Virus record (IMG/VR): IMGVR_UViG_3300029953_000001 | DNA length: 64,000 nt | Source of the DNA: a virus | Reading direction: 5' to 3' (one strand) | Shown: in pieces, positions 32,613-33,096 of the stretch | How the letters are laid out: every line of letters begins with the position of its first letter | Position numbering within the stretch: the stretch's first letter is position 1 | The notes under the pieces: generated by a model | What the model saw: only the letters and a program-made list of their open reading frames with translations | The model's database searches: none | What the model was told of the DNA's origin: nothing | Translations under genes and position numbers: made by a program

Positions 32613-32833
32613 GCCTTGAATACAAGACGGCTCCACTTCACGTGAAGATTCTCTGTTTCATTGTCCTAGCGGCCACCGGAGGACCCGCGCTGATGCTCAT
32701 CTGGCTGCTCATTATGCTCTACCCGCTGGTACCTATGAACACGGCCTTCTTCGGGGGACTGCTGCTGGGCATCTTCGGATTCGGCTGGTATGCTTATCGT
32801 ACTATCCGCTTCATGCGGGGAGGGAGTCTCTAA
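32609..32833 (+). CDS. small membrane protein with two TM helices (74 aa)
   Basis: Hydrophobic sequence ILCFIVLAATGGPALMLIWLLIMLY... Confidence 0.45.
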   Translation: MSLEYKTAPLHVKILCFIVLAATGGPALMLIWLLIMLYPLVPMNTAFFGGLLLGIFGFGWYAYRTIRFMRGGSL

Positions 32834-33096
32834 TGTATCTAGGACTGGGAGTAGCTCAAGTTCTATTGCAGGTTTGTCCCGACTGCAAACTACCGCTTCG
32901 CCTCGAACGCCCCGGTGCGAAGAACTGTGTGTGCCCTCTGAAGAAAGAGTCGGGTTTCACGCTCATCGAACTTCTCATCGTCGTGTCCATTGTCATGATT
33001 CTGGCCGTACTGGCCTCGGCGTTCATTCGTGGTGACAAAGGGTTCCCCGGTACAGCAACCCACCAACCGTACCACGACTCGTACTACCACAACTAA
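32833..33096 (+). CDS. type IV pilin / pseudopilin-like protein (class III signal G|FTLIELL) with an N-terminal Cys cluster
   Basis: KKESGFTLIELLIVVSIVMILAVLASAF is a textbook prepilin leader plus N-methyl-Phe segment. The true start may be a non-ATG codon just upstream of LKKESG. Confidence 0.5.
   Translation: MYLGLGVAQVLLQVCPDCKLPLRLERPGAKNCVCPLKKESGFTLIELLIVVSIVMILAVLASAFIRGDKGFPGTATHQPYHDSYYHN

Follow-up and report, generated by a model that had tools for sequence, protein, structure and literature searches.

A small pilin-like gene at the locus

The locus described here lies in a stretch of 64,000 nucleotides (nt) of viral DNA (IMG/VR record IMGVR_UViG_3300029953_000001), hereafter referred to as the window, in which a preliminary description made from the letters alone had singled out a type-IV-pilin-like protein. 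The open reading frame (ORF) lies on the plus strand at 32833..33096, ends with the stop codon TAA at 33094-33096, and specifies a pilin-like small membrane protein of 87 residues, MYLGLGVAQVLLQVCPDCKLPLRLERPGAKNCVCPLKKESGFTLIELLIVVSIVMILAVLASAFIRGDKGFPGTATHQPYHDSYYHN. Retranslation matched both the coordinates and the translation of the preliminary description exactly, and 87-residue calls bearing the Pfam family PF07963 are present on at least 20 contigs. A comparison of codon usage in all six frames gave the best score to the frame of the ORF (-0.006 per codon vs. -0.28 to -0.81 elsewhere), which bears out the reading frame that had been assumed. Residues 33-87 had a typical coding score of 0.246, a value that no off-frame window attained, and this core of 55 codons is normal for the phage in its codon usage and in its G+C content at third codon positions (GC3). 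The leader region, i.e., the first 32 codons, gave an intermediate codon score, with 10% of true in-frame windows scoring lower and 6% of off-frame windows scoring higher. The ORF abuts its neighbours on both sides. Altogether, our results indicate that the product is a single-span inner-membrane protein, encoded by a real jumbo-phage gene and carrying a true class III (prepilin) signal.

The class III signal and its helix

The pilin-like part of the protein is encoded at 32941..33027 (+) and comprises the class III signal together with the first helix (alpha1), K37-K-E-S-G41 / F42-T-L-I-E46, from where it continues hydrophobic to I65; it was delimited with Pfam N_methyl, TIGR02532, the AlphaFold2 (AF2) helix and the PilFind rule. 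The KKESG segment had previously been read as a prepilin-peptidase substrate signal, and two curated hidden Markov models and the PilFind rule all support that reading. Residues 37-61 (KKESG / FTLIELLIVVSIVMILAVLA) matched PF07963 (N_methyl) with 33.6 bits (E value 2.4e-8; gathering score 21.2), and residues 40-61 matched TIGR02532 (IV_pilin_GFxxxE) with 20.8 bits in the 87-residue form and 22.2 bits in an alternative form of 55 residues (cutoff 16.3). The PilFind rule demands Gly at position -1, next to it a hydrophobic residue (Phe, +1), then Glu at +5 and a stretch of 14 or more uncharged residues, with a single span and a length below 350 (PMC3244431). The protein has the motif GFTLIE (G41, F42, E46), followed by 19 uncharged residues, in one span and within a length below 350, so that the rule accepts both the cleavage motif and Glu+5; residues 38-68 were the sole hydrophobic span in this check.

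The match extends over the whole consensus K-K-x-x-G-F-T-L-I-E-L-L-I-V-V, beyond a plain hydrophobic span, and 16 consecutive residues, LKKESGFTLIELLIVV, are the same in a cellular pilin-like protein of 128 residues (P0002). Furthermore, a six-frame scan of the window and of ~30 kb of flanking sequence found no second genuine instance of the pilin motif. Because the N_methyl and TIGR02532 scores lie above their cutoffs, the PilFind rule agrees with them and the scans found no second genuine instance, we conclude on sequence grounds that the class III signal is real and far beyond chance.

Absence of a pilin body

A model predicted with AF2 from the single sequence contained one confident helix, at residues 44-67 (predicted local distance difference test score 81-91), and no other structure. 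No globular C-terminal alpha-beta head domain was found, the model being without structure past residue 67. What follows the helix is a polar tail in which His, Tyr and Gly abound (RGDKGFPGTATHQPYHDSYYHN; 33028..33093, +), which is predicted to be periplasmic, lacks a pilin head domain, is short, compositionally biased and unstructured, and had no homolog in our searches. Since only 22 residues follow the helix, the mature form after cleavage would have 46 residues and no head domain. Equivalog models for pilins, pseudopilins and minor pilins matched over their first 20-30 positions only and far below their cutoffs (for GspG, 15.2 bits vs. 88.85), and the best matches in the PDB were pilins that aligned through alpha1 only, the top one being a truncated Geobacter pilin. 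Thus, the protein is not a full pilin; it is headless.

Start codon and leader

The cleavage motif lies at residue 41 in the 87-residue form and at residue 9 in the 55-residue form. The start codon of the former, ATG 32833, is preceded by a Shine-Dalgarno (SD)-like sequence with a GGAGG site, GGGGAGGGAG (32817..32826, +), which is located 6-9 nt before the ATG, within the end of the upstream gene. Its predicted duplex with the anti-SD sequence (-11.5 kcal/mol) is attained by 3 of the 662 plus-strand ATGs in positions 100-37000, i.e., it is in the top 0.5%. The same ATG overlaps the stop codon of the upstream gene, which encodes 74 residues, in a TAATG (32831..32835, +), an arrangement read from the sequence that points to translational coupling. 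The other junctions in the surrounding block of small genes (31591-33922) are +7, -1, -1, -11, -4, +1, -1 and -23 nt, and the start of the 87-residue form was called on at least 20 contigs (from ENA, Logan and most of those from JGI), vs. two JGI contigs for the start of the 55-residue form. On these grounds the earlier suggestion that the start had been mis-called is not favoured, and ATG 32833 is probably the start that is used.

The preliminary description had placed the real start at a CTG or TTG just before LKKESG. There is no TTG at that place, and the CTG at 32938-32940 is the codon for Leu36; the realistic alternative is the GTG at 32929..32931 (+; Val33), which was called by JGI (as P0001) on those two contigs and would give the 55-residue form. 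If this were the only form made, the upstream 96 nt would be an untranslated spacer, and the product would be an ordinary short-leader prepilin, M-CPLKKESG / F, whose basic leader of nine residues resembles those of classical type IVa pilins. The choice made by the JGI caller agrees with this possibility, as do the change in GC3 from 0.47 upstream of the GTG to 0.70 downstream and the presence of gaps of 83-249 nt elsewhere in the region. However, the GTG has a weak SD duplex (-5.3 kcal/mol), GTG starts are rare (29 of the 32 called starts in the region are ATG), its use would leave a gap of 95 nt, the sole large one in the packed block, and it would disregard the SD sequence and the stop overlap of ATG 32833. 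We therefore consider exclusive use of the GTG doubtful, while dual initiation at the ATG and the GTG is possible. This alternative bears on the start alone and is compatible with the decoy mechanism proposed in the Discussion.

Initiation at the ATG would provide a putative cytoplasmic leader of 41 residues, M1-G41 (32833..32955, +), with a net charge of +3, a hydrophobic stretch at residues 1-14, low AF2 confidence and, as stated above, an intermediate codon score. It contains a Cys cluster, C15-P-D-C18, x13, C32-V-C34 (32875..32934, +), which from a reading of the sequence may be a small zinc ribbon or knuckle. The cluster had been described as CPDC...C..C; its first pair, C15-P-D-C18, is as described, whereas the second, C32-V-C34, is a CxC and not a CxxC. 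A comparison of CPDC-x13-CVC with the zinc-ribbon family PF06677 remained below threshold (13.4-15.7 bits vs. a cutoff of 24.1), and AF2 confidence in the region of the cluster was below 55. The N-terminal extension is indeed atypical, as had been remarked: the cleavage sites of the pilins on which PilFind was trained fall within the first 35 residues (PMC3244431), and a site at residue 41 is outside this range.

Relatives of the pilin-like protein

Outside the signal, the protein appears to be without relatives. No homolog of the leader or of the tail was found in 5.8 billion protein clusters, and an exhaustive HMMER search of 1.84 billion representatives returned 19 matches, all of them via the signal and none extending beyond it; matches in this search with an apparently internal motif were rejected as tandem or fused pilin calls. 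Among phage protein families, PHROGs 13280, 10597, 11263, 15036, 27437, 11596 and 3433 matched with E values of 7e-6 to 9e-3, over the positions of the signal only. One of these seven is named 'pilin' and is assigned to the category moron/host takeover, and four have profiles of 56-72 positions.

Pilin-like ORFs were detected by tblastn in ~140 of 50,697 cultured-phage records, an approximate count since the E-value limit was lax. The comparable small ORFs in cultured phages encode 59-150 residues; examples are those of the KVP40-like Vibrio phage phi-Grn1 (Schizotequatrovirus; 67 residues), Pseudomonas phage PAK_P5 of the PAK_P5/KPP10 group (59 residues), Xanthomonas phage PhiXhv-15 (99 residues, annotated 'type IV pilus subunit'), Synechococcus phage ACG-2014f (127 residues, 'pilin'), Aeromonas phage 44RR (ORF097c, 72 residues) and Aeromonas phages Asfd_1 and UP87 (150 residues). 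ORFs with an N-methylation motif in T4-like phages had been tabulated in 2006 (PMC1524935). The Aeromonas mini-pilin family is conserved across genera, and one Aeromonas clade (11 records) has a conserved in-frame extension of 78 residues before G / FTLIEL. Since this clade keeps its 78-residue extension, a phage class III signal preceded by a long leader is not without parallel. The mini-pilin of Aeromonas T4-like phages (L085 1321-1773; L114 301-756; L115 401-619) exists in a 72-residue form with the leader MKG and in the 150-residue form, and the 78-residue extension is in frame, with a one-codon indel between clades.

Genomic setting

The window comes from a jumbo phage: an identical 87-residue protein is present on a contig of 431,749 bp, and a neighbouring gene of the window occurs on a 317-kb contig that also has an rIIB-like gene. 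In the window itself, we found genes for Ku, DNA and RNA ligases, a major-vault-protein-like protein, PARP, a CCA-adding enzyme, SIR2, five giant polyvalent ADP-ribosyltransferase/GNAT proteins and collagen-like tail fibres. That the element is a phage, as the preliminary description had taken it to be, is supported by the rIIB-like gene, the collagen-like tail fibres, an Mtd_N gene and the relatives in IMG/VR. No match to cultured phages was found at the DNA level. Over 32609-33307, sequence identity is 100% among some 18 contigs recovered from many samples, and the window differs from a JGI contig by one single-nucleotide polymorphism in 20 kb; the phage population is clonal.

The pilin-like gene belongs to a lineage-specific block of nine tightly packed small genes (31591..33922, +), situated between the conserved PARP gene and the likewise conserved genes for g115, g71 and the CCA-adding enzyme. 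Searches by tblastn found no homolog of any of the nine genes, either in a set of 81 related loci from IMG/VR or in relatives from metagenomes with PARP proteins 56%, 76% and 85% identical; in all, the pilin-like gene and its eight block neighbours are missing from 81 IMG/VR loci, 4 metagenome loci (PARP 56-100% identical) and 7 genome loci. The same interval in those relatives holds different small genes, among them unrelated small membrane proteins in locus L003. Because the nine genes have no homologs in relatives and the interval is occupied there by different small genes, we conclude that 31591-33922, with its small membrane-protein and zinc-finger genes, is an accessory island of hypervariable content and a hotspot where cassettes are exchanged. 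Compared with L003, L124 and L125 (PARP 56-85% identical), this post-PARP interval is wholly replaced, and in L003 and L124 it holds a bactofilin-like repeat protein.

The upstream coupled gene (32609..32833, +) encodes a protein of 74 residues with two hydrophobic spans and no family match. The downstream gene, which abuts the pilin-like gene (33098..33307, +), encodes a CxxC...CxxC protein of 69 residues with a basic, AT-hook-like RKRGRPEKKK tail, for which zinc-finger matches were sub-threshold only. A further small membrane protein is encoded at 34366-34560. PADLOC, which holds profiles of anti-phage defence and exclusion systems, gave no match for the pilin-like protein or for nine of its neighbours. 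Pfam families of pilB, pilC, pilD or gsp genes are not on record in the window or in the 10 kb on either side of it, and no endolysin or other lysis-related family is recorded within 10 kb. A holin or lysis-cassette reading was considered and rejected, since it had no supporting context and no such family within that distance. Counts of predicted promoters and terminators were at the level of shuffled sequence, with none inside the block.

Other genes of the phage

Next to the block, the widely conserved 115-residue protein g115 (33981-34328, +) has the motifs PEVGMGAT and TDxNGMSE, and related proteins are encoded on at least 155 IMG/VR contigs with lengths of 4-536 kb. Relatives also occur in metagenome-assembled genomes and genomes of Bacillota, Acidobacteriota, Planctomycetota and Alphaproteobacteria, a distribution that is uninformative on the host. 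A perfect 8-bp GC-rich hairpin, GAGGGGCG-TCTC-CGCCCCTC (34337-34356), separates the g115 gene from the small membrane-protein gene that follows and was scored as terminator-like on the minus strand only. A zinc-finger-like protein of 71 residues (34576-34791, +), with a match to zf-TRM13_CCCH at threshold, is kept in relatives beside the CCA-adding enzyme. The latter (35312-36658, +) has PolyA_pol and RNA-binding domains, yet no tRNA gene was detected in the 64-kb window.

Other genes lie farther away. An 861-residue protein (4208-6793, +) matches MVP_shoulder (E 8.6e-25) and Vault_3 (E 1.6e-9), two domains of major vault proteins of eukaryotic type; this phage also encodes a PARP-domain protein (29919-31583). 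Three plus-strand regions, 11-712, 16648-17457 and 22846-23871, encode Ku (E 7e-30), a DNA ligase that is ATP-dependent and an RNA ligase that has an HNH domain; together, these form an end-joining/repair set. On the minus strand, five consecutive giant ORFs of 825-2485 residues occupy 38706-61695, adjoined by a SIR2 gene (37804-38637, -). Four of the five have repeated ART-PolyVal, GNAT and ParB_N domains, as well as SprT-like and Tpt1 domains (polyvalent proteins), and the fifth (54897-59225; 1442 residues) is without a Pfam match. One polyvalent protein has 1605 residues in the window vs. 1776 in contig Ga0397551_0000013, with a TAG stop at 42469-42471 (-) in the window in place of GAG, the sole difference in 20,168 nt. 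Finally, a tail-fibre-like protein with collagen repeats (GxxGxx) and a second fibre-like protein are encoded at 61781-62779 and 62793-63980 (+), and a gene with Mtd_N (major tropism determinant) just past the window (L112 11431-11901) hints at a target of a diversity-generating retroelement.

Discussion

We tentatively propose that the pilin-like protein is a decoy or poison subunit that depends on the host prepilin peptidase and is directed against the host's type IV pili or type II secretion; interference of this general kind, raised in the preliminary description, is plausible. According to this model, translation would proceed mostly from ATG 32833, coupled to the upstream membrane-protein gene, and would yield a precursor of 87 residues that inserts with its N terminus inside and its C terminus outside, as suggested by flank charges of +3 and 0. 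A host prepilin peptidase of the PilD/GspO type would cut after Gly41 and methylate Phe42, and the product would be a headless pilin of 46 residues, composed of alpha1 with Phe1 and Glu5 plus the 22-residue tail. Such a stub might be a competitor of the host's pilins or pseudopilins, both at the peptidase and at the assembly platform, or it might enter the growing fibre and stall it. The outcome would be fewer functional type IV pili and/or less type II secretion during infection, and the likely benefit would be the exclusion of pilus-dependent competitor phages or the prevention or reduction of progeny loss on infected cells. The Cys-bearing leader, whether released or retained, may add a second function. 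In an extended version, the protein would be a two-in-one pro-protein: the cut at G41 / F42 would free a zinc-binding cytoplasmic peptide of 41 residues and leave a headless pilin that caps or stalls pilus or secretion fibres, and superinfection exclusion by such subunit decoys would be shared by many phage mini-pilins. We regard this extended version as improbable.

Several observations weigh against the decoy model. A prepilin peptidase and pili in the host are assumed, and no type IV pilus, type II secretion or peptidase A24 gene is on record in the ~94 kb of the phage that the analysis covered. The gene is invariant in all contigs, which leaves no variation from which dN/dS (the ratio of nonsynonymous to synonymous substitution rates) or conservation of the start could be judged. 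A cleavage site at residue 41 is beyond the 35 residues of the trained pilins (PMC3244431), and in an alignment the helix has Met14 and Ala22 where major pilins typically carry Gly14 and Pro22. Furthermore, our literature searches turned up no work on the function of any pilin-like protein encoded by a phage.

The same position of the motif, which follows from the better-supported ATG 32833 and is outside the normal pilin range, would also suit a protein whose pilin-like segment is a mere membrane anchor. Such a small bitopic protein would act via its cytoplasmic Cys-bearing N terminus or its periplasmic tail, with no peptidase processing and no link to pili, for example as an entry block of the T4 Imm type, as a factor that times lysis or in partnership with the co-translated 74-residue membrane protein. 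Coupling to this two-span protein, the additional small membrane protein at 34366-34560, the unrelated small membrane proteins of L003 in the same interval and the lack of pilus genes nearby all agree with this explanation. However, a generic anchor has no need of Gly-1, Phe+1 and Glu+5, the full consensus is matched above both curated cutoffs, and within 10 kb neither an endolysin nor another lysis gene is on record; we consider a mere anchor somewhat unlikely. It is also conceivable that the gene is a decaying fragment, i.e., the captured 5' end of a host pilin gene that became fused to unrelated sequence and has no selected function. The leader and tail without a homolog in either large collection, the restriction of the gene to one clonal phage population, the short, biased and unstructured tail and the intermediate score of the first 32 codons are what such a fragment might show. 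Yet the 55-codon core is normal for the phage in codon usage and GC3, the ORF fits exactly between its neighbours and has a strong ribosome-binding site, and equally short pilin-like ORFs are kept across genera of cultured phages, so stubs of this kind can persist. Decay is therefore unlikely in our view.

The preliminary description had also raised the possibility of a virion component. Pilins are by nature fibre subunits, and the protein might be part of the phage particle or of a phage-directed filament. This idea found no support: the gene belongs to a variable accessory block whose small genes are non-structural, the tail-fibre genes are 29 kb away and across a strand switch, the gene is missing from all relatives, and its product has no head domain to form the surface of a fibre. 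A role in the virion or in a filament is thus very improbable.

Type IV pili rank with the receptors that phages use most commonly. If the decoy model is true, a host-processed pilin stub would be a different and very compact means to disarm pili or type II secretion, and the same trick may be present in the ~140 cultured phages of Vibrio, Aeromonas, Pseudomonas, Xanthomonas, Acinetobacter and Synechococcus, which are experimentally tractable. The gene described here is an extreme example, with a mature part of 46 residues and possibly a long, 41-residue leader that bears Cys residues. Taken alone, it is an orphan of an uncultured phage, for which testing in the native host is impossible; the class of mini-pilins as a whole merits experiment in a cultured system.

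As in type IV pilins and the pseudopilins of type II secretion (PF07963/TIGR02532), the basic leader of the protein terminates in Gly and is followed by Phe+1, Glu+5 and a hydrophobic alpha1 of ~20 residues. Unlike them, the protein lacks a globular or partner domain, may have a leader of 41 residues that contains four Cys, and is the product of a phage without pilus genes in the vicinity. Among solved structures, the nearest are those of Geobacter PilA-N 'Geopilin domain 1' (PDB 9egp, 7tgg and 2m7g), in which the pilin is likewise essentially reduced to the helix, although the 2m7g chain has 61 residues vs. 46 in the predicted mature form here. The small membrane superinfection-exclusion proteins of T4 type, such as Imm, are also short and are encoded among the variable early or accessory genes of large lytic phages; they are without a prepilin signal, which the present protein has.

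Phage proteins that act on pili provide a functional comparison. Tip of phage D3112 inhibits PilB, Aqs1 of DMS3 acts on PilB and LasR, and PfsE of Pf4 binds PilC (PMC12035536). These are small accessory phage proteins, as is the one described here, and the outcome proposed above, pilus loss with exclusion of pilus-dependent phages, is the same. That review (PMC12035536), however, gives the ATPase or the platform protein as their targets and does not present them as mimics of pilins, and a subunit or substrate decoy would differ from them in mechanism.

The nearest counterparts are the small pilin-like ORFs of cultured phages, which are also phage-borne and very short, with a G / FTL(I/T)E signal and a brief tail, and are found among small genes without assigned function. 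The similarity to them is limited to 25-30 residues of the signal, with unrelated tails and leaders; alignment and tblastn comparison with phage mini-pilins left no conserved column after the helix except for one Thr. The gene is thus an orphan addition to the already known, functionally uncharacterised phage mini-pilin-like proteins and, among those examined, has the shortest mature part and the sole leader with a Cys cluster.

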